A stretch of 32,000 bases of DNA from Rhodobacter capsulatus SB 1003 (GTDB lineage: Bacteria; Pseudomonadota; Alphaproteobacteria; Rhodobacterales; Rhodobacteraceae), in the NCBI RefSeq assembly GCF_000021865.1, contig NC_014034.1:1440001-1472000 (forward strand). Direction: 5' to 3'. Below are positions 2,191 through 9,529 of the stretch, in pieces (position 1 is the first letter of the stretch; each line of letters begins with the position of its first letter). Under the pieces are notes generated by a model. It was not told the DNA's origin. It did not search any database and saw only the letters and a list, made by a program, of their open reading frames with translations. A program made the position numbers and the translations under genes.

Positions 2191-2219
2191 CTGTTCCCCG
2201 CCCACGCGGGGATTACACT
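2191..2219 (+). CRISPR. solitary type I-E-like CRISPR repeat (ctgttccccgcccacgcggggattacact), 3-prime end diverged
   Basis: The first 23 nt match the repeat at 8189..8217 with 2 substitutions and keep the I-E palindrome core CCCCGC-N-GCGGGG. No spacer or second repeat is adjacent. Confidence 0.6.
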
Positions 2220-2444
2220 TGATGTGATCCTCTTTGATGTATCAACGGCGGCGATTGATCTGCCTTAATGGATCAACGCTTGTGCAGATGCAGGTTTTGA
2301 TCTGTATGAACCAATCAGATCTGCCACATGATCTGTCAGGACAGATCGCCGTGATCCCCGAGGCCGAGGAAATCGCCGCCCAGTTCCGGGCGGCCCTTGC
2401 GCGCAAGGGGGTCAGCCAGCGCGATTTGTCCGCGCGGGCCGGGG
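2220..2444 (+). repeat. dispersed repeat copy A (CRISPR trailer / hipB-like promoter and 5-prime coding region)
   Basis: Aligns by eye along its whole length with 8291..8514, at roughly 85-90 percent identity with 2 single-nt indels. Confidence 0.85.
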
Positions 2445-2503
2445 TGAACGCAGGGCGCGAATTCCGGCTTTGCGGGCGTTTCGGCAGGATCTGCCCGGGG
2501 TGA
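2351..2503 (+). pseudogene. XRE/HipB-like HTH antitoxin gene, frameshifted after the first HTH helices
   Basis: GTG 2351 aligns with ATG 8421 of copy B. It encodes IPEAEEIAAQFRAALARKGVSQRDLSARAGV, a typical XRE N-terminus. The expected recognition helix continues only in another frame (ARIPALRAFRQDL). Confidence 0.55.
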
Positions 2504-2582
2504 TCACGATGACGCCTGCCGAAGGCGATGACAGTCCTGCGGGCGGTTACGCAGACATGGCCGAAGGGCAGGGGGCAGGACC

Positions 2583-2700
2583 ATGCTGCGCTTCTCGCTG
2601 GCCGGGGTGCAGCTGAAGTTTTCCGCCGTCCATGCCGCTGGCGGCGGGCTGACCATTCCGGCTTCGGGCATCGGCGGGAACTGGATCGTCAAGCTGCGCC
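2583..2700 (+). pseudogene. HipA-family kinase toxin, short internal N-terminal fragment
   Basis: MLRFSLAGVQLKFSAVHAAGGGLTIPASGIGGNWIVKL matches the conserved SLAGVQxKxS ... WIVK block of HipA N-terminal domains. Similarity stops near 2700, and the upstream coupling domain and the kinase domain are missing. Confidence 0.55.
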
Positions 2701-3009
2701 AGAGGCGGCGCAGCGTTGGCAATGCGATCATTGCCGCGTTCAATGACGCTGCGCAAAATGCTCCACGATCTGCTCGCCGGAAGTTCCATAATACATTGAA
2801 TATTAATAATTACCAATTTTTGAGGTCCGTATATGGCGGACACTGCTTCCGCCAGCCATCCGCTGCGTCGATCTGTGATTGTGATTGCCAATCAATTGCC
2901 TGAAGGGCTTTCCGCCAGGCTCGGGACGCGTTCCTGATCCTCTCCGGAACAAGACGATTGCGGCGAGGATGAGGACCTGTTCTTGCGCTCCGGCGCCGAC
3001 GGGCGCGCC

Positions 3010-3876
3010 TTACGCGCCCTCCAGATCGTGACGCTTCGCGAGGACATGATCCGCGATCGCCGCAGCCACCGCGCGCACCCGGCGCGAGGCGGCAAGTTCC
3101 GCGTGGGTGGCCAGGAGGATCGGCCGCTCCATCGGCGCGCCGTCGGGCAGCCGGGCCGCCAGCAGGCGCAGCCCGGCCTCGCGCGCAAGGAAATGCGGCA
3201 GCACCGCGACGCCCAGCCCATCCCGCACCGCCTGAACCTGCGCCGTCAGCGTGTTCAGCGCCAGCCGCGGCGCCGTGCGCGCGCCAAAGGCCGCCGACCA
3301 GGCAAGCGGCACCGCCAGGCTGGGCGCGTCGGGCCAGGTCACATGCCGCGCGGGCGGCGCCCCCTCGGCGGGGCCGTAAAGGCCGAAGCCCATCTGCGCC
3401 AGCCGCCGCACCGTCAGGTTGCCGCGCTCGGGCGGCACCATCCGCAAGGCCAGATCGGCGTCATGGCGGTGCAGGTTCACCGTCGCCGTCCCCCAATGCA
3501 CCTCGACGTCGAGCCCGGGATTCGCCGCCAGAAGCGGCCCGAGCGCGGGCAGCACGACCGGCGCCACCAGGCTTTCGATGCTGGCAAGCCGCACCAGGCC
3601 GCGGATCTCGACCTGCGCCCCGGCCTCGCGCCGCATTTCCTGCAATGCCAGTTCCATCGCCTCGGCCCGGGGCAGCAGCGCCGCGCCCTGGTCGGTCAGT
3701 TCGTGCCCGGTCTGGCGGCGCAGGAACAGCGGCAGGCCGAGCGTCGCCTCCATCCGGTCGATGCGCCGCGAGATCGTGGCAACGCCAAGACCCAGTCGCC
3801 GCGCCGCGCCCTGCAGCGTGCCCTCGCGCGCCAGCGCCAGAAACAGCCGGATGTCGTCCCAGTTCTGTGGCTCCAT
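3010..3876 (-). CDS. LysR-family transcriptional regulator
   Basis: 288 aa from MEPQNWDDIRLFLALAREGTLQGAARRLGLGVATISRRIDRMEATLGLPLFLRR (LysR HTH) plus a substrate-binding domain. It is only the C-terminal part of the artefactual 1019-aa ORF 3010..6069. It is divergent from the EamA gene. Confidence 0.85.
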   Translation of the reverse strand: MEPQNWDDIRLFLALAREGTLQGAARRLGLGVATISRRIDRMEATLGLPLFLRRQTGHELTDQGAALLPRAEAMELALQEMRREAGAQVEIRGLVRLASIESLVAPVVLPALGPLLAANPGLDVEVHWGTATVNLHRHDADLALRMVPPERGNLTVRRLAQMGFGLYGPAEGAPPARHVTWPDAPSLAVPLAWSAAFGARTAPRLALNTLTAQVQAVRDGLGVAVLPHFLAREAGLRLLAARLPDGAPMERPILLATHAELAASRRVRAVAAAIADHVLAKRHDLEGA

Positions 3877-3881
3877 GCGCG

Positions 3882-3895
3882 TTCCATTTTTGGAA
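3882..3895. promoter_or_regulatory. candidate LysR-type box TTCCA-N4-TGGAA in the LysR/EamA divergent intergenic region
   Basis: ttccatttttggaa is an inverted repeat 6 nt upstream of the LysR start. A second small palindrome, ttccaggaa, lies at 3922..3930. Confidence 0.35.
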
Positions 3896-3972
3896 ATCAG
3901 ATGCACGATCTTTGCCATATATTCCAGGAATGGGACATGGGACAGATCCTTCGTGTCAAACAGGAGGGTTCC

Positions 3973-4884
3973 ATGTCCGACGTCTTCTCTGCCCCGCGGC
4001 CGCGCGCCGAGACGGCGGCCTTCGCGCTGAGCGCGCTTGCCGCCGTCTTCTGGGGCTCGAATTTCGAGGCGACCCGCGTCGTGCTGCAGGAGATGCCGCC
4101 CTGGACCGCGGCGGCCGGGCGGTTTCTGATCGCGGCGCTGGCCATCCTTGGCTGGCTCTGGCTCGCCGAGGGCTCCGGCCTTCCGGCGCTGCGGCGGAAC
4201 TGGAAGGTGTTTCTGGGGCTTGGCGTGGTGGGGGTGGCGGGGTTCAACGCGGCACTGTTTCTGGGCATGCGCAGTTCCAGCCCGGTCACCGCGGCGCTGA
4301 TCATGGGCACGAGCCCGCTGACGACGACCCTGATCGAGGCGGCGCTGACCCGCCGTTGGCCGAAGGCGGGGACGTTGGCCGGGATGGCGATCAGCCTTGT
4401 GGGCGTGGCCTTGACGGTGGGCGCGTTTTCGGGGGCGCGGCTGGCGCCGGGGGACGGGCTGATCCTGCTTGGCAGTCTTGCCTGGGCGCTTTACACCGTC
4501 GGCTGCCGCCGCTGGGTGGTCGCGGCAAGCCCGCTCGAGACTTCGGTCTGGACGATGCTGGCCGGGGCGCTGGCGCTGCTGGGGGCGGCCTTCGCCCTCG
4601 AGACGCCGGTGGCAAGCGTTCTGGCAGCCTCGCCCGCCGCCTGGGGTGCGACGCTCTGGATGGCGCTGGCGGGCTCGGTTCTGGCCTATCTGTTCTGGCA
4701 GGTCGGGATTCAGATCCGCGGACCGGGGGCGACCTCGGTGCTGTTCAACCTCGTGCCGGTCTCCGCTCTGGCGATCGCCGCGCTTTTCGGCCGGACGCCC
4801 GAGCTCTCGCAACTGGCCGGGGTCGCGCTGGCGATCCTTGGCGTGCTGCTGGCAAGCGGACGCCTGACGGTGCCCCGGCGCTGA
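3973..4884 (+). CDS. EamA/DMT-family transporter
   Basis: 303 aa and about 10 predicted TM helices (AVFWGSNFEATRVVL..., two EamA halves). AGGAGG at 3962..3967 precedes ATG 3973. Confidence 0.8.
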   Translation: MSDVFSAPRPRAETAAFALSALAAVFWGSNFEATRVVLQEMPPWTAAAGRFLIAALAILGWLWLAEGSGLPALRRNWKVFLGLGVVGVAGFNAALFLGMRSSSPVTAALIMGTSPLTTTLIEAALTRRWPKAGTLAGMAISLVGVALTVGAFSGARLAPGDGLILLGSLAWALYTVGCRRWVVAASPLETSVWTMLAGALALLGAAFALETPVASVLAASPAAWGATLWMALAGSVLAYLFWQVGIQIRGPGATSVLFNLVPVSALAIAALFGRTPELSQLAGVALAILGVLLASGRLTVPRR

Positions 4885-5028
4885 CGGAGGAGACCCGGGC
4901 GCGCCTCCTGGCCCGCGCCCGCCTTGTGACGGCGCGGAGCGTGCAACAAGCGGGCGAGGGGCAGGGGCGTCCTGTTTCGCCCGCAGTTCCTGAGTAAAAC
5001 ACTCTTGAGTTCCGCGGGTTGCGGGGAT

Positions 5029-5050
5029 AGTGAAAATCGACTCTTTCACT
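5029..5050. promoter_or_regulatory. inverted repeat AGTGAAA-N8-TTTCACT upstream of the ABC substrate-binding protein gene
   Basis: Perfect 7-bp arms ending 21 nt before ATG 5071. The position fits an operator for a metal or iron-responsive repressor. Confidence 0.3.
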
Positions 5051-5070
5051 CGGAAACCGGACCCTCCCCC

Positions 5071-6105
5071 ATGTTGCCCCTCAAGACCGCCATTCTGGGT
5101 GGCGTCGCCCTCTCCTGCCTTTGCTCCGCCGCGCTTGCCGAGCGGACGAGCTATCCCCTCACCATCGAGAATTGCGAGCAAAAGGTGACCTTCGCGAAAG
5201 CACCCGAGCGCACCGTGGCGCTGGGGCAGAACAGCGCCGAGATCCTGCTCCTGCTGGGGCTCGAGGATCGCATGGCCGCCACCGCCTTCTGGCCGAACAG
5301 CGTCCTGCCGGAGCTGGCCGCGGCGCATGACAAGGTGGAGGTGCTGACGGTCGAATTCCCGACGCTTGAAGCGGTGCTGGCGCAGCAGCCCGATTTCGTG
5401 CCTGCCATGCTGGTGACGCTGATGGGGCCCGACAGCAAGGTCACCAAGCGTGAAGATCTGGAAGCGCTCGGCATCCCGACCTACCTCTCGCCCAGTGCCT
5501 GCACCACCGAGGCCGACACGCAGAGCGCGAACGGCAGCGCGGCGAGCTCTGCCTATGGTGTCCGCAAGGATCTGTGGTCCATGGACCTCCTCTACAAGGA
5601 GATCGAGGACATGGCGCGCATCTTCGACGTGGCCGAGCGCGGCGCGGCGGTGATCGCCGATTTCAAGGCCCGCGAGGCCGCCCTGCGCGCCGAATTCGCG
5701 CCGCGCGAGGATCTGACCTTCCTGTTCTGGTTCTCCAGCCCCTCGCCTGCCGACGATGCCTATCTGGGCGGCGGCCATGGGCCTTCGGGCTACATCGCCG
5801 ATCTGCTTGGCGGCTCCAACGCGATCAGGACCGAGGCGGAATGGCCGACCCTGGGCTGGGAAGGCATCATGGCCGCCAATCCCACCGTCTTCGTCGCCGC
5901 GCAGGTGGACCGCAACCGCTGGGACCTTGACCGGGCCGACACCAAGATCGCCTGGCTGACCTCCGATCCGGCGGTCAGCCAGATGGAGGCGGTCAAGGCG
6001 GGGCGCATCGCGGTGATGAGCGGGGCGGCGATGAACCCCTCGATCCGCACGCTTTACGGCGCCGAGCAACTGGCAGACCAGCTCCGTTCCTTCGACCTGC
6101 CGTGA
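5071..6105 (+). CDS. ABC transporter periplasmic substrate-binding protein (iron-siderophore/cobalamin type, PBP cluster A)
   Basis: Signal peptide MLPLKTAILGGVALSCLCSAALA, then ...PERTVALGQNSAEILLLLGLEDRMAA...QQPDFV..., typical of FecB/FhuD-like binders. Its stop overlaps the permease GTG (GTGA). Confidence 0.8.
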   Translation: MLPLKTAILGGVALSCLCSAALAERTSYPLTIENCEQKVTFAKAPERTVALGQNSAEILLLLGLEDRMAATAFWPNSVLPELAAAHDKVEVLTVEFPTLEAVLAQQPDFVPAMLVTLMGPDSKVTKREDLEALGIPTYLSPSACTTEADTQSANGSAASSAYGVRKDLWSMDLLYKEIEDMARIFDVAERGAAVIADFKAREAALRAEFAPREDLTFLFWFSSPSPADDAYLGGGHGPSGYIADLLGGSNAIRTEAEWPTLGWEGIMAANPTVFVAAQVDRNRWDLDRADTKIAWLTSDPAVSQMEAVKAGRIAVMSGAAMNPSIRTLYGAEQLADQLRSFDLP

Positions 6106-6686
6106 GCATTCGTGACGAGACCGGAAGCGGGGCGGGGAAATTCCTCTTGCTTCTGACGGTGTCCCTTCTGGTTCTGTGTCTTGCCGTCGCGGTGGCGATG
6201 ACCGTCGGCGATTATGCCATCGCGCTTGGCACGGTCGTGCTGGCGGTGGGCAACGGGCTGGGCCTCACGACCGCCGAGATCCCGCGCATCGAGCAGAGCG
6301 TGGTCTGGGACCTGCGGCTGAGCCGCGCGCTGGTCGCGGCGCTGGCGGGCGCGGGGCTGGCCATCTGCGGCGCGATCCTGCAGGCGCTGCTGCGCAACCC
6401 GCTGGCCGAACCCTTCGTGCTGGGCGTCTCGGCGGGGGCCTCGACCGGCGCGGTGGCGGTCATCGTGCTGGGCATCGGCGCGGGCGGGCTGTCGCTGTCC
6501 ATGGGGGCTTTCGCGGGCGCCTTCGCCGCCTTCGCGCTGGTGGCGCTTTTGTCGAACGGCGCGACCAGCGGGCCGAACCACACGATCCTCGCGGGGGTCG
6601 CCGCCTCGCAGCTTTTCAACGCGCTGACCTCCTATATCGTCACCACCTCGGGCAATGCCCAACAGGCGCGCGACGTGATGTTCTGA
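6102..6686 (+). pseudogene. FecCD-family ABC permease, truncated after about 194 codons by an IS end
   Basis: LRLSRALVAALAGAGLAICGAILQALLRNPLAEPFVLGVSAGAS... is canonical FecCD. The ORF ends at ...QQARDVMF, where intact homologs continue (usually FW..G..) for about 140 more residues. The stop TGA at 6684 is the first triplet of the IS3-like terminus. No ATPase gene follows. Confidence 0.75.
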
Positions 6687-7230
6687 CCCGTGCCGGGTTT
6701 GCCGGAGGCTCCAACTCCTGAGTAGGATGGAGCATCATGAGCAAGACAACGAACAAGTTTTTCCCGGAAGTGCGCGAACGCGCCGTGCGTCTGGTCCTCG
6801 ACAGTTCGGCGGACCGCGCCGTCGGTTCAAGCGGATCGCCGAACGGGCAGCATGGATCGCGCTGGCACCACAGCGACCGCGGCAACCAATATCTGTCGAT
6901 CAAAGACGACCCGCGCGGCTGGCCGAAGCGGGTATCGAACCTTCGGTCGCTTCAGGGGCTTACGCGGCCCCACCGGGGCCACGGTCCCCTTTCCCCGTCG
7001 GCGACAGCCATGACAAGGCGCTGGCCGAGACGATCAACGGGCTTTTCAAAGCCGAGGTCATCGATCGTCGCGGTCCATGGCGCCGCTTCGAGGCGGTGGA
7101 ATACGCAACGCTGGAATGGGTCGACGGGTTCAACAATCGCCGCCTGCTCAAGCCGATCGGGACCATTCCGCCCGCCGAAGCGGAAGCAGACTTCCATGCG
7201 GCTTTGGAAACTGAAGCCATGGCCGCGTCA
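6684..7230 (+). mobile_element. IS3-family insertion sequence relic (left end, orfA N-terminus fused to orfB fragments by internal deletions)
   Basis: The terminus begins TGACCCGTGCC. MSKTTNKFFPEVRERAVRLVLD is the IS3 OrfA N-terminus. HHSDRGNQYLSI and GDSHDKALAETINGLFKAEVIDRRGPWRRFEAVEYATLEWVDGFNNRRLLKPIGTIPPAEAEADFHAALE are OrfB DDE and C-terminal motifs, found in two frames. Confidence 0.75.
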
Positions 7231-7254
7231 CCAACCCAAATCCGCCTCCGGCAA

Positions 7255-7495
7255 ACCCGGCGCGGGTCACATCTTCACCCGCCCCCATACACCAAAGACC
7301 AACGGCAGGGCCGAGAGGTTCATCCAGACCCTCCTCAGAGAATGGGCCTACGGCCTCGTACACCCGTCTGCCCAAGCGCGAAATACCGACCTGCCGCGAT
7401 GGCTTGACTGGTTCAACACATCAAGACCACACTCCGCACTTAACGGCCTGTCACCCGTCAAAAGGGTGAACAACCTGATGAGAACTCACAGCTAG
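7255..7495 (+). mobile_element. IS481-family transposase C-terminal relic (boundaries approximate)
   Basis: FTRPHTPKTNGRAERFIQTLLREWAYGLVHPSAQARNTDLPRWLDWFNTSRPHSALNGLSPVKRV is the characteristic IS481 integrase-core C-terminus. No N-terminal part and no terminal inverted repeat are present. Confidence 0.7.
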
Positions 7496-7764
7496 CCGGT
7501 GCTCGATCTGCCCACGGCGGCAATGGCGCTTTATACGTTTCTGGCCTTTGCGCCTTCGGGGGGCGCGGCAACCGCACCTCGATGCGCGGCGGCGGGCCTC
7601 TGGTGACGCTGATCGACCCGCGCGAGGGGCGGGGCAGCCTGTGAGATCTGATCTGGGCGAATGTCCCCTGCGGTCAGCCCGGCCGGGCCGGGGATCTGCC
7701 GTGGATGCGCCCCAGCTTGGGCGAGATTGTCCGCTTTGTCACCGATGCGGTGCGGGGGGCGTGA
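7496..7764 (+). pseudogene. cas7e: cas7e (casC/cse4) 3-prime fragment with one frameshift and one in-frame stop
   Basis: ALYTFLAFAPSGG (frame 2) then GNRTSMRGGGPLVTLIDPREGRGSL-stop-DLIWANV...RPSLGEIVRFVTDAVRGA (frame 1). From memory this resembles the E. coli CasC tail (HMLATEVPGAKQ...MVMVNF...SMANAF...MPTLEQLKSWVRNNGEA). Its stop overlaps the cas5e ATG (TGATG), as in I-E operons. Confidence 0.5.
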
Positions 7765-8000
7765 TGCAGCCCTTTCTCATCTTCGGCCTCTCGGCCAGCC
7801 TTGCCGCGATGGGCGAACTGGCGGGGCACGAACGGGGCGGCTCGCTGATCTGGCCCGGCCGGTCCGCCCTCCTCGGGCGTCCGGGCGCGGCGCTTGGCAT
7901 CCGTCGCGACGGCGATTTTACTGCCCTTGATACGCTGGATGCTTCGGTGGCGATCTTTGACGCGGGGGCGGCGCTGCGCGATTATCACACCATCGAAAGC
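7764..8000 (+). pseudogene. cas5e: cas5e (casD) 5-prime fragment, about 77 codons
   Basis: MQPFLIFGLSASLAAMGELAGHERGGSLIWPGRSALLGRPGAALGIRRDGD...LRDYHTI parallels the Cas5e N-terminus (YLILRLAGPMQAWG...RPTGRFPTRSGLLGLLGACLGIQRDD...LRDYHTV). Similarity ends near 7995. Confidence 0.65.
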
Positions 8001-8002
8001 GT

Positions 8003-8101
8003 GATGATCAGGGCTACGACTTCCGGACCGCAGGTCGAAATCGCCGGAGGCCGGTGGATTTCGACGGGCTGAAGCTGGTGAGTTTCAAGCCGGACAGGTG
8101 A
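8003..8101 (+). pseudogene. cas2e: cas2e 3-prime fragment, last about 32 codons
   Basis: DDQGYDFRTAGRNRRRPVDFDGLKLVSFKPDR-stop matches the Cas2e C-terminus ([30 protein letters not shown]-stop). It joins the cas5e fragment directly, which implies loss of the cas5e 3-prime part, cas6e, cas1e and most of cas2e. Confidence 0.7.
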
Positions 8102-8188
8102 GGCCGATCCGAAGCGGAAAGCTGGAGAGAATTCGATGCGCTCTTTGACATTGCGAAAATCTTGCTGGATCAAGGATCTGCAGGAAGA
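8102..8188 (+). promoter_or_regulatory. CRISPR leader remnant between the cas2e stop and the first repeat
   Basis: 87 nt, lower GC than the surroundings (attcgatgcgctctttgacattgcgaaaatcttgctgg), in the canonical I-E leader position. Confidence 0.5.
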
Positions 8189-8278
8189 CTGTTCCCCGCC
8201 AATGCGGGGATGAACCGGTCGGCGCATCGATCATCGCGCAGACACGCAGCTGTTTGCCGACATGGCCACGGATCAAAG
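8189..8278 (+). CRISPR. type I-E mini-array: 29-nt repeat, 32-nt spacer, degenerate terminal repeat
   Basis: The repeat ctgttccccgccaatgcggggatgaaccg (8189..8217) has the I-E signature. The spacer gtcggcgcatcgatcatcgcgcagacacgcag (8218..8249) is exactly 32 nt. The terminal repeat ctgtttgccgacatggccacggatcaaag (8250..8278) shares about half its positions. Confidence 0.75.
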
Positions 8279-8290
8279 GGCGACGACACG

Positions 8291-8514
8291 TGATGTGATC
8301 CTTTTTGATGTGCCAACGGCGGCGATTGATCTGTTTTGAGGGATCAACGCCTGTGCAGAGGCGGGTTTTGATCTGCATAAACCAATCAGTTCCGCCAGAT
8401 GATCTGTCAGGACAGATCGCATGTTTCCCGAGACCGGGGAAATCGCAGCCCGGTTCCGGGCGGCCCCGCGCGCAAGGGGGTTCGTCAGCGCGAGTTGTCC
8501 GCGCGGGCCGGGGG
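8291..8514 (+). repeat. dispersed repeat copy B (CRISPR trailer / hipB-like promoter and 5-prime coding region)
   Basis: Paralog of 2220..2444. Both palindromes (TTGATC-N10-GATCAA and GATCTGTCAGGACAGATC) are conserved. Confidence 0.85.
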
Positions 8515-8520
8515 GCACGC
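8421..8520 (+). pseudogene. second hipB-like HTH gene relic, frameshifted and truncated
   Basis: ATG 8421 encodes MFPETGEIAARFRAA, then a 1-nt deletion relative to copy A breaks the frame (expected ...ARKGVRQRELSARAG). No hipA-like sequence follows; the pirin gene end is at 8621. Confidence 0.5.
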
Positions 8521-8620
8521 GTGCATATGGAGGATGTCGCGCAGGTGATCGGCGACGAGGGCCGCGATGCGGCAGCCCCCGGGAGATGGGCGGCAGCACC
8601 GCGGCAGGCCGCAGGCCCCC

Positions 8621-9529
8621 TCAGCCGTGCTTGATGAAGGTGCCGTTGTTCAGCTCGCGCAGGGCCTGACGCAGTTCCTCCTGCGTGTTCATCACGATCG
8701 GCCCGTGCCAGGCGACGGGTTCCTGAATCGGGCGGCCGGTCATCAGCAGGAACCGGATCCCCGCGTCGCCCGCCTGAACGGTGATCTCGTCCCCCGCGCC
8801 GAACCGGACAAGGGTGCGGTTGCCGGTGCGGTTGCGCAGGGTCAGCTCCTGGCCGCGAAATTCCTTCTCGACCTGGATGCCCACCGGATCGGCTGCATCG
8901 CGAAACGTCCCCGATCCGGCAAAGACATAGGCCAGCGCATTGGCGCGGGTGTCGATGGGCAGCACCTTGCGCCGCCCCGGCGGAATGGACACATCGAGCA
9001 GCATCGGATTGGCCGCGATCCCGTCGACCGGGCCGGTCTTGCCCCAGAAAGACCCGATGATCACCTTGACGGTGGTGCCGTCGTCGTCGCCCTCGATCGG
9101 AATGTCGCCCGCCGCCACGTCCTGATAGCGCGGCGCGGTCATCTTCAGCGCGGCGGGCAGGTTCGCCCAAAGCTGAAAGCCGTGCATCTTTCCCTCGGCA
9201 TTGCCGAAGGGCATTTCCTGATGCACGATGCCCGAGCCCGCCGTCATCCATTGCACGCCGCCCGCGCCAAGGAGCCCCCGGTTGCCCAGCGAATCCGCGT
9301 GTTCCACCTGGCCCTCAAGCACATAGGTGATCGTCTCGATGCCGCGGTGCGGATGCCAGGGAAAGCCCTTGGCATAAAACCGCGGATCGTCGTTGCGGAA
9401 ATCGTCCATCATCAGGAAGGGGTCGGTCAGCGCCGGATCGCCAAAGCCGAAGACGCGTTGCAGATGCACGCCTGCGCCCTCGATGGCGGGCTGTGCGGTG
9501 CTGGTGGCAAGAACGGGTCTGAAGGTCAT
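8621..9529 (-). CDS. pirin-family protein (bicupin)
   Basis: 302 aa from MTFRPVLATSTAQPAIEGAGVHLQRVFGF...GFPWHPHRGIETITYVLEGQVEHADSLGN...GGVQWMTAGSGIVHQEMP. GGGAG precedes the ATG at 9529. Confidence 0.9.
   Translation of the reverse strand: MTFRPVLATSTAQPAIEGAGVHLQRVFGFGDPALTDPFLMMDDFRNDDPRFYAKGFPWHPHRGIETITYVLEGQVEHADSLGNRGLLGAGGVQWMTAGSGIVHQEMPFGNAEGKMHGFQLWANLPAALKMTAPRYQDVAAGDIPIEGDDDGTTVKVIIGSFWGKTGPVDGIAANPMLLDVSIPPGRRKVLPIDTRANALAYVFAGSGTFRDAADPVGIQVEKEFRGQELTLRNRTGNRTLVRFGAGDEITVQAGDAGIRFLLMTGRPIQEPVAWHGPIVMNTQEELRQALRELNNGTFIKHG

Follow-up and report, generated by a model that had tools for sequence, protein, structure and literature searches.

Escherichia coli lineages are known in which the cas operon of the type I-E CRISPR-Cas system (clustered and regularly interspaced short palindromic repeats and CRISPR-associated genes) has been lost and remnants of the array have been kept, giving orphan or decayed type I-E loci. 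Repeats outside regular arrays are described from two further settings, namely, the standalone repeat-like sequences and mini-arrays within CRISPR-cas loci (Shmakov et al., bioRxiv 10.1101/2023.03.03.530964; PMC10120712; the CreTA and CreR systems are cited there) and the solitary repeat units and RNA anti-CRISPRs that phages and plasmids carry (Camara-Wilpert et al., Nature 2023, PMC10651486). A third described system is the hipBA type II toxin-antitoxin module, in which a helix-turn-helix (HTH) antitoxin gene is followed by the gene of the HipA kinase, with operator-like palindromes upstream and relatives on plasmids (Gerdes et al., mBio 2021, PMC8262856). Here we analyze a 32-kb stretch of the Rhodobacter capsulatus chromosome (the window, to which all coordinates refer), in which a type I-E repeat is followed by the same downstream sequence at two places, copy A (~2191-2708) and copy B (~8189-8553). 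We consider it probable, at roughly 0.68, that the two copies are paralogous, nonfunctional relics of the 3' end of an I-E array abutting a hipBA operon.

As in other decayed I-E loci, such as those of E. coli, the cas genes have been reduced to fragments by insertion sequences (ISs) and deletions, leader and repeat relics persist, and the fragments differ by strain; in contrast to those loci, one relic is a single repeat lying ~6 to 11 kb from the cas relic, and both array ends share the same non-CRISPR downstream sequence. The solitary repeat of copy A and the two-repeat unit of copy B, with its degenerate distal repeat, resemble the standalone repeats and mini-arrays of Shmakov et al., but spacer-promoter complementarity, intact effectors, and conservation beyond that of the flanks are all lacking. 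The downstream sequence has the gene order, the palindromes, and the plasmid relatives of hipBA modules, but no more than ~32 hipB codons and 21 to 110 hipA codons are left per copy, without the kinase core and fused out of context. A single repeat outside an array is also what the phage and plasmid repeat units display; here, however, the repeat is chromosomal and not in a mobile element, the cognate cas locus is dead, and there are no phage genes nearby. The pair of features is ordinary genome decay, neither active nor excisable as an element, and adds one more case to a familiar process with no new mechanism shown. What it provides is a clean, dated example of the death of a CRISPR-Cas locus, with different cas fragments per strain, an array reduced to one spacer at copy B and to a single repeat at copy A, and a neighboring toxin-antitoxin operon removed three separate times by deletion at the same 9-bp microhomology.

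Two type I-E repeats and the sequence downstream of them

The two copies comprise the following features.

2191-2219, + strand: solitary type I-E repeat of copy A (CTGTTCCCCGCCCACGCGGGGATTACACT, 29 nt), located by pattern match
2220-2350, + strand: predicted promoter/operator region of the copy A hipBA operon, with seven GATC sites and the palindromes GATCTGTCAGGACAGATC (2330-2347) and TTGATC-N10-GATCAA (2255-2276)
2351-2446, + strand: hipB' of copy A, the first ~32 codons of an XRE-HTH antitoxin gene, with a GTG start (MIPEAEEIAAQFRAALARKGVSQRDLSARAGV), from tblastn and the HipB profile
2437-2708, + strand: copy A 'hipA fragment, HipA profile positions ~73-184, with homology ending at ~2708
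8189-8279, + strand: minimal array of copy B, made up of repeat 1 (8189-8217), a 32-nt spacer (8218-8249), and a degenerate terminal repeat (8250-8279)
8291-8420, + strand: predicted promoter/operator region of the copy B hipBA operon, with six GATC sites and both palindromes as in copy A
8421-8513, + strand: copy B hipB' stub with a 1-nt deletion frameshift, from the alignment, the HipB profile (E of 0.13), and tblastn
8515-8553, + strand: copy B 'hipA fragment, HipA positions ~236-256 (ARVHMEDVAQVIG), from tblastn (E of 0.01) and the HipA profile (E of 9e-3)

The I-E core pattern GTTCCCCGC-N4-GCGGGGAT, which specifies 17 bases, occurs without a mismatch at two sites in the window, 2193 and 8191, both on the + strand. 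At the same two sites, 25/29 and 27/29 positions match the local I-E repeat consensus, the next best site in the window reaching 20/29. Repeat 1 of copy B is a complete 29-nt I-E repeat (24/29 identical to the Haematobacter repeat and 22/29 to that of E. coli), and the copy A unit is identical to it at 23/29 positions. The length of 29 nt, the stem-loop, and the 3' handle of I-E repeats (GTTCCCCGC-N4-GCGGGGAT-xAACCG) were recognized, with TACACT instead as the handle of repeat A. Judged by its sequence, repeat A is a genuine I-E repeat, because the 23 nt at its 5' end are identical to repeat 1 of strain L124 (GCA_052363435.1), with the CCCAC loop common to both, and because it shares 25/29 positions with the repeat in the array of an I-E locus on a Thioclava plasmid.

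Downstream of the repeats, BLASTN aligned 2215-2451 with 8286-8520 in the same orientation (86.5% identity over 237 columns; E of 6.5e-77), and a global alignment of 2220-2451 with 8291-8520 gave 201/232 identities with two single-base gaps. The copies thus differ by 13%, and their longest identical run is 22 nt. The initial annotation had seen two direct modules of I-E repeat and shared downstream sequence, 85 to 90% identical by eye, and had proposed a self-comparison of the window in which a lack of similarity would speak against them; the comparison gave significant similarity instead, agrees with that estimate, and carries the homology ~7 nt further 3'.

We then examined the nature of the shared sequence, using profiles built from 61 HipA proteins and 39 upstream HTH (HipB) proteins of the same subfamily, drawn from 80 related loci, and searched against all 731 six-frame pieces of the window. 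The best matches were as follows.

2565-2708: hipA profile, E of 4.7e-22
2470-2559: hipA profile, E of 1e-3
8491-8553: hipA profile, E of 9e-3 (third best of the 731 pieces)
2381-2500: hipA profile, E of 0.02
Elsewhere in the window: hipA profile, next best match, E of 3.7
2360-2449: hipB profile, E of 2.8e-6, profile positions 4-33
8471-8512: hipB profile, E of 0.13 (second best in the window)

The four top hipA matches and the two top hipB matches of the window therefore all lie within copies A and B. In addition, the N terminus of a Tritonibacter HTH protein matched window positions 2360-2446 in tblastn (59% identity; E of 1e-5), the homologues of the open reading frame (ORF) fragments 3' of copy A are HipA kinases, and DNA similarity to plasmid hipA genes starts at 2437, just where the homology between the copies stops. 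On plasmids of Tritonibacter mobilis and Pacificitalea manganoxidans, a gene for a 196-residue HTH protein comes before the homologous hipA, and the fragments stand in this order, antitoxin gene directly upstream of the hipA gene, in both copies. The shared 232 bp, taken by the initial annotation for the trailer of a CRISPR array, are instead the regulatory region of hipBA (~131 bp of noncoding sequence) and the 5' end of hipB (~32 codons).

The noncoding part would carry the promoter and operator of hipBA. The palindrome GATCTGTCAGGACAGATC stands right before the hipB start codon, both palindromes are conserved in copies A and B, and the regions upstream of homologous hipB genes are on average enriched in GATC, most strongly in the closest relatives (4 to 5 sites per 130 nt); TGAT and GATC words like those of the two copies also occur upstream of several of the closest hipB homologues. 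We infer that 2220-2350 and 8291-8420 are operator/promoter regions to whose palindromes HipB putatively bound.

A terminator-like hairpin of 10 pairs, including 2 G-T pairs, can be drawn across the border of repeat and downstream sequence in copy A (2208-2232). In it, GGGGATTACA at the 3' end of repeat A pairs with TGTGATCCTC at the start of the sequence behind it, and TTTGATGT follows. The equivalent site of copy B has a GGATCA…TGATCC pairing and then TTTTT. Such a hairpin may have stopped transcription of the array before hipBA; it could also be due to chance, 0.5 such sites being expected per region.

Copy A as a solitary repeat

Copy A follows the acetone carboxylase operon, inside which the window starts.

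89-1576: acxB
1632-2135, + strand: acxC, acetone carboxylase gamma subunit (Pfam PF08882; E of 1e-54), left neighbor of copy A
2145-2168: terminator-like hairpin GCCGGGCTGAgcgaTCAGCCCGGC, read from the sequence and seen as a self-inverted match in the window self-comparison

Repeat A sits 55 bp 3' of the acxC stop codon, just beyond this hairpin. The 55 nt upstream of it are not similar to the leader of copy B (284 of 500 shuffles scored as well), and we therefore rejected them as a leader remnant. No second repeat was found 3' of it even when degenerate repeats were included (best match, 10/29), so that the two or more repeats with ~32-nt spacers that make an array are absent, and there is no cas gene near copy A. 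The single repeat is present in all five allele types (21 loci), in each R. capsulatus locus covering the region, and in 11/11 R. capsulatus assemblies. In annotations, the repeat at 2191 should not be labeled a CRISPR array.

The last 9 nt of repeat A, GATTACACT, agree at 6/9 positions with the sequence preceding the former "trailer" in copy B, GACGACACG, at 6/9 with the end of the Thioclava repeat, GATCACCCG, and at 5/9 with the local repeat end, GATGAACCG; a model of deletion at a GA microhomology gives 7/9. The last six bases may thus be either a diverged repeat end or a deletion junction. A recombination junction inside repeat A, suggested by the initial annotation, cannot be shown from these competing alignments (5/9, 6/9, and 6/9), and repeat A may be read equally well as a complete 29-nt terminal repeat.

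Decay of the I-E locus and of the hipBA operons

The surroundings of the copy B array are as follows.

7488-7712, + strand: cse1/casA fragment, 75 to 76% identical in DNA to the casA genes from Paracoccus versutus and Frigidibacter plasmids
7764-8003, + strand: N-terminal cas5e fragment of ~80 codons (Pfam PF09704; E of 1.6e-10), named Cas5 in R. capsulatus YW1
8004-8101, + strand: 3' end of cas2e (…GYDFRTAGRNRRRPVDFDGLKLVSFKPDR*), 75% DNA identity to Haematobacter cas2e, continuing through leader and repeat 1
8102-8188, + strand: I-E leader (GCGCTCTTTGACATT…GGAAGA), sharing homology with the leaders in the plasmid loci of Haematobacter and Thioclava
8621-9529, - strand: pirin-family gene (PF02678 and PF05726), right neighbor of copy B

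A leader was thus recognized at copy B only. The degenerate repeat at 8250-8279 is marginal when taken alone (~20/30 identity with one gap; 49 of 1,000 shuffles did as well), and it begins, with CTGTT, exactly 32 nt past repeat 1. Where a functional I-E locus has intact cas3, cse1, cse2, cas7, cas5, cas6e, cas1, and cas2, the window retains cse1', cas5e', and 'cas2 fragments only, and the other strain type retains cas3' and cas2 only. In the latter, represented by GCA_000506425.2 (L005 and L125, one contig) and GCA_052363435.1 (L124), EamA, SDR, SnoaL, LysR, and NUDIX genes and a cas3 C terminus fused to a near-complete cas2 stand upstream of copy B. In both L125 and L124, the fusion is followed by the same leader, repeat-spacer-repeat, "trailer," and pirin gene, and the array is identical to that of the window. 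The ABC (ATP-binding cassette) operon, broken in the window, is intact in GCA_000506425.2; the L124 contig begins at the second EamA gene, so that this operon lies outside its span. Homology between the strain types breaks at window position 6685 and resumes at 8004.

Since each lineage keeps cas fragments that are absent from the other, their ancestor had a fuller I-E operon between NUDIX and the array, and this operon was probably complete. The homology of its leader and cas2 end to plasmid I-E loci identifies copy B as the true end of an I-E CRISPR-Cas locus, which in the R. capsulatus ancestor stood between the NUDIX and pirin genes and of which the lineages have since lost different parts by independent deletions. 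Plasmids carry the closest intact relatives of the cas fragments, often directly beside a replication-initiator gene. A type I-E system, which probably came from a plasmid, was thus once present in R. capsulatus. Neither the Cas5e fragment nor pirin, when used as a query, led to an intact I-E locus of R. capsulatus, and in the literature on CRISPR in this species, "I-E" is absent from the paper on the type VI-A system, and no other title among the search results points to an I-E relic.

In GCA_052363645.1 (L006/L127), the IS and cas5e arrangement is that of the window, yet the leader, mini-array, and "trailer" of copy B (the equivalent of window 8102-8625) are of the GCA_000506425.2 allele, a mixture that points to recombination between strains across the region. 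The plasmid I-E loci of Haematobacter (L010:3025-3106), Thioclava (L128:6204-6280), and Frigidibacter (L129:15406-15480) each have a two-repeat mini-array with degenerate repeats between cas3 and casA. Regulatory mini-arrays in I-E loci have been reported at this very position (Shmakov et al., bioRxiv 10.1101/2023.03.03.530964), and the plasmid ones look like further examples of this known class.

Neither hipBA copy has full reading frames or the HipA kinase core, and hipB ends after ~32 codons in both. In copy A, hipB runs at codon ~32 (…ARAGV) in frame into HipA position ~86 (AGVNAGREF…), and the 9-mer at the junction, GCCGGGGTG, encodes A-G-V in both genes. In the window strain, two 1-nt deletions, one near 2468 and one near 2571, further disrupt the hipA frame; L005 and L006 are free of these frameshifts. 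In copy B, the same point of hipB, at GCCGGGG, is joined to HipA position ~236, and the stop codon of the convergent pirin gene (8621) follows ~70 bp beyond. In strains L021 and L022, a further deletion, the third at this 9-mer, has fused ARAGV with QLRFSAV (protein P0035), and it is segregating among strains. The homology between the copies ends at ~2451/8520 because each hipB stub is there joined to a different part of hipA, and recurrent deletion at the microhomology explains why it does so at the same hipB position, without a shared junction having to be assumed. The gene downstream could be imagined as a single YjjJ/HipH-like protein with an N-terminal HTH domain, but we rejected this, as AGVNAGREF… lies inside the N-terminal domain of HipA in homologues; for the same reason the hipB-hipA fusion is regarded as a deletion product. 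The small ORFs called over 2234-2903 and 8085-8378 should accordingly be annotated as pseudogene debris.

Positions 2917-2972 hold a 56-nt match (82%; E of 1e-5) to IS5-family transposase genes of Ketogulonicigenium plasmids, in a stretch of lower GC content separating the hipA fragment from the LysR stop codon. The match suggests truncation of the copy A hipA by an IS element.

Origin of the two junctions and the segment between them

Between the copies, the initial annotation had listed a LysR gene, an EamA gene, a broken ABC operon, two IS relics, and cas remnants, a gene content with which our analysis agrees.

3010-3918, - strand: LysR-family regulator (PF00126 and PF03466 in relatives), first gene of the segment
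3973-4884, + strand: EamA-family transporter (PF00892)
5071-6686, + strand: ABC uptake operon, with an intact binding protein (PF01497) and a partial FecCD permease (PF01032, positions 4-164 of 311)
6686-7495, + strand: IS relics, two rve_3 transposase fragments in a lineage-specific breakpoint segment

The FecCD permease breaks off at 6686, after its residue 194, and homology to the intact L005 operon ends at 6685. A 35-nt inverted repeat (6675-6709 and 7244-7278; 89% complementary) lies right at this breakpoint and resembles both ends of an IS element most of which has been deleted. Copies A and B are 5,996 to 5,999 bp apart in 15/15 window-type loci spanning both, but ~10.7 kb apart, by record coordinates, in the L005/L125 strain (GCA_000506425.2), where the intact ABC operon and five more genes lie between them. 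The 6-kb block that had been described as bracketed by the copies is thus not a discrete unit. In the comparison with relatives that the initial annotation had called for, both copies and a segment between them were present in 11/11 R. capsulatus assemblies; the segment varies in content but is never absent, and in neither strain type does it hold an intact cas operon. A junction of acxC, a hybrid copy, and pirin, as left by loop-out, was not seen in the 11 assemblies or the contigs examined. The marks of an element bounded by attachment sites (attL and attR) are likewise missing, since the segment contains only IS transposase relics, its ends are 86.5% identical, and the block is never absent.

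The divergence of 13% between the copies has to be compared with 97.6 to 99.0% identity between strains over long alignments, and the duplication or second acquisition must on this basis be much older than the sampled strain diversity. Because two chance juxtapositions of an array end and a hipBA operon are very unlikely, the junctions would descend from one such segment. We propose that this segment, probably derived from plasmid DNA, was duplicated within the chromosome or acquired twice, long before the sampled strains diverged. Array A would later have been cut on its 5' side to one repeat. Each hipBA was lost by a deletion joining hipB at GCCGGGG(TG) to a different point of hipA. The resident I-E locus decayed separately in each lineage, the window lineage keeping cse1', cas5e', and 'cas2 behind IS relics and the other lineage keeping a cas3 C terminus fused to cas2. 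Of the three options offered by the initial annotation, the best fitting is that of two former arrays with their downstream sequence in common, and its interpretation of the modules as homologous, direct, and CRISPR derived stands, whereas a CRISPR trailer and a discrete 6-kb block do not.

Several observations weigh against this history. None of the 80 closest hipA loci of other species has an I-E repeat or a CRISPR-like array within 10 kb, hipBA does not follow any of the three nearest plasmid I-E loci, and no outgroup with an intact I-E array followed by hipBA was found. Adjacency of array and hipBA is thus known only from these two relics, and we rejected such adjacency as a general feature (0/80 hipA loci and 0/3 plasmid I-E loci). 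The hipA fragment of copy B rests on 21 residues (E of about 0.01), and the evidence for the lack of function discussed below is the decay together with polymorphism in no more than four to five alleles. Homologues of the "trailer" DNA were not found in the plasmid collection, nor was the 20-mer TGATCTGTCAGGACAGATCG found in viral contigs; a metagenome scan for the same 20-mer, a weak one that missed the motif-bearing JGI contigs L018 and L019, returned one chance match in a chemoreceptor gene (L117).

As for function, 2/29 sites of repeat A and 4/29 of repeat 1 vary among strains, compared with 19/311 and 38/524 in their surroundings, and one variant of repeat A turns a G-C pair of the stem into G-U; no constraint on the repeats beyond that of the flanks (~6 to 7% variable) was found. 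The best spacer matches in the window were no better than those of shuffled spacers, with none in either hipBA promoter, and phage records gave chance-level matches only. Complementarity between spacer and promoter next to a protospacer-adjacent motif, typical of CreA and CreR, is therefore lacking, as is conservation beyond the flanks, and neither repeat appears to be functional today.

These data bear on the other ways in which the two copies can be read. That the motif at 2191 matches by chance, or belongs to a conserved element other than CRISPR, is exceedingly improbable. The unit is indeed solitary, and in an Rfam search no family, CRISPR direct-repeat families included, reached the gathering score, but 17 specified bases without a mismatch, 25/29 positions shared with a real array repeat, and 23 nt identical to the L124 repeat disfavor this, and repeat A is placed relative to the hipBA region just as the terminal repeat of copy B is. 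There is slightly more, although still very little, to be said for a solitary repeat and/or mini-array acting as a CreA- or CreR-type RNA through which Cascade would control the adjacent hipBA, so that loss of the CRISPR-Cas locus would be costly. A repeat-then-hipBA junction found twice, in a layout like that of published mini-arrays with a degenerate distal repeat beside toxin-antitoxin cargo (Shmakov et al.), would suit such a regulator. Yet the spacer matches nothing above shuffled controls in the window, hipBA promoters included, the Cascade genes of this locus are destroyed and both hipBA copies dead, variation among strains is no lower in the repeats than in their flanks, and 0/80 hipA relatives adjoin a CRISPR array. 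We regard it as just as doubtful that the ancestral hipBA was functionally coupled to the end of the I-E array and was propagated with it as a module, hence the junction found twice; read-through or Cas6e processing at the terminal repeat, for example, might in that case have controlled hipBA, the operon thereby serving as an addiction module that guarded the array.

The remaining two readings concern the segment between the copies. By Campbell-type integration, a circular element, for example, a repABC plasmid with I-E cas genes, array, and hipBA, would have recombined by way of its repeat and hipBA region with a homeologous chromosomal copy, leaving hybrid copies on either side of an integrated LysR-to-NUDIX segment and cas operon. 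The direct orientation of the copies agrees with this, and the closest I-E loci are plasmid borne and adjoin replication-initiator genes (repC in Frigidibacter, an RP-C-domain gene in L115/L116, and replication initiator protein A in Haematobacter); the closest hipBA operons are likewise plasmid borne, with at least one of the plasmids typed as conjugative, and relatives of the ABC operon, the acx genes, and pirin also occur on Rhodobacterales plasmids. We nevertheless judge integration unlikely, as neither strain type has genes for replication, partition, or transfer between the copies, the segment does not stand out in its GC profile, and a preexisting second repeat with hipBA would still be needed, so that the presence of two copies is left unexplained. 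Far less likely again is a recent segmental duplication still excisable by RecA-mediated recombination. Direct repeats of 232 bp do bracket the segment, and pairing of A with B could in principle delete it, rarely if at all; but the excisability suggested by the initial annotation is unsupported, given 13% divergence, a longest identical run of 22 nt, and no loop-out. Both copies and the segment occur in all 11 assemblies at either of the two spacings (5,996 to 5,999 bp in 15 loci, or ~10.7 kb), and the hipA fusion points differ between the copies, so that divergence preceded decay. Two old, paralogous array ends with decayed hipBA operons thus remain the preferred reading.

The wider neighborhood yielded further observations. 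A type I-C array (repeat GTCGCTCCCCCCGCGGGGGCGTGGATCGAAAC) ends just before acxR, ~7 kb upstream of the window start, in all R. capsulatus strains examined (L005:25-3246, L006:634-3245, and L001:2671-3265), and the acetone carboxylase operon therefore lies between relics of two CRISPR systems. Cas1 and Cas2 stand beside this array in L006, and an IS66 element has cut it to ~10 repeats in L001 to L004. From the L006 Cas1 and Cas2 genes upstream of acxR came the idea that the acetone carboxylase operon had been inserted into the I-E array, which we rejected, the array being of the unrelated type I-C. Exact matches of AcxC, pirin, and a CheY-like protein led to R. capsulatus assemblies with the same gene order, and the names that databases give to the local ORFs likewise refer to R. 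capsulatus. Much of this chromosomal neighborhood has plasmid-borne relatives. On a Gemmobacter fulvus plasmid (L130), those of the ABC operon adjoin a gene cluster for a soluble di-iron monooxygenase and an alcohol dehydrogenase. On a Rhodovulum sp. P5 plasmid (L131), a toxin-antitoxin pair and a pirin gene, the latter with 82% DNA identity to the local one, lie ~6 kb away from a hydantoinase/oxoprolinase-family gene with a sigma-54 regulator.

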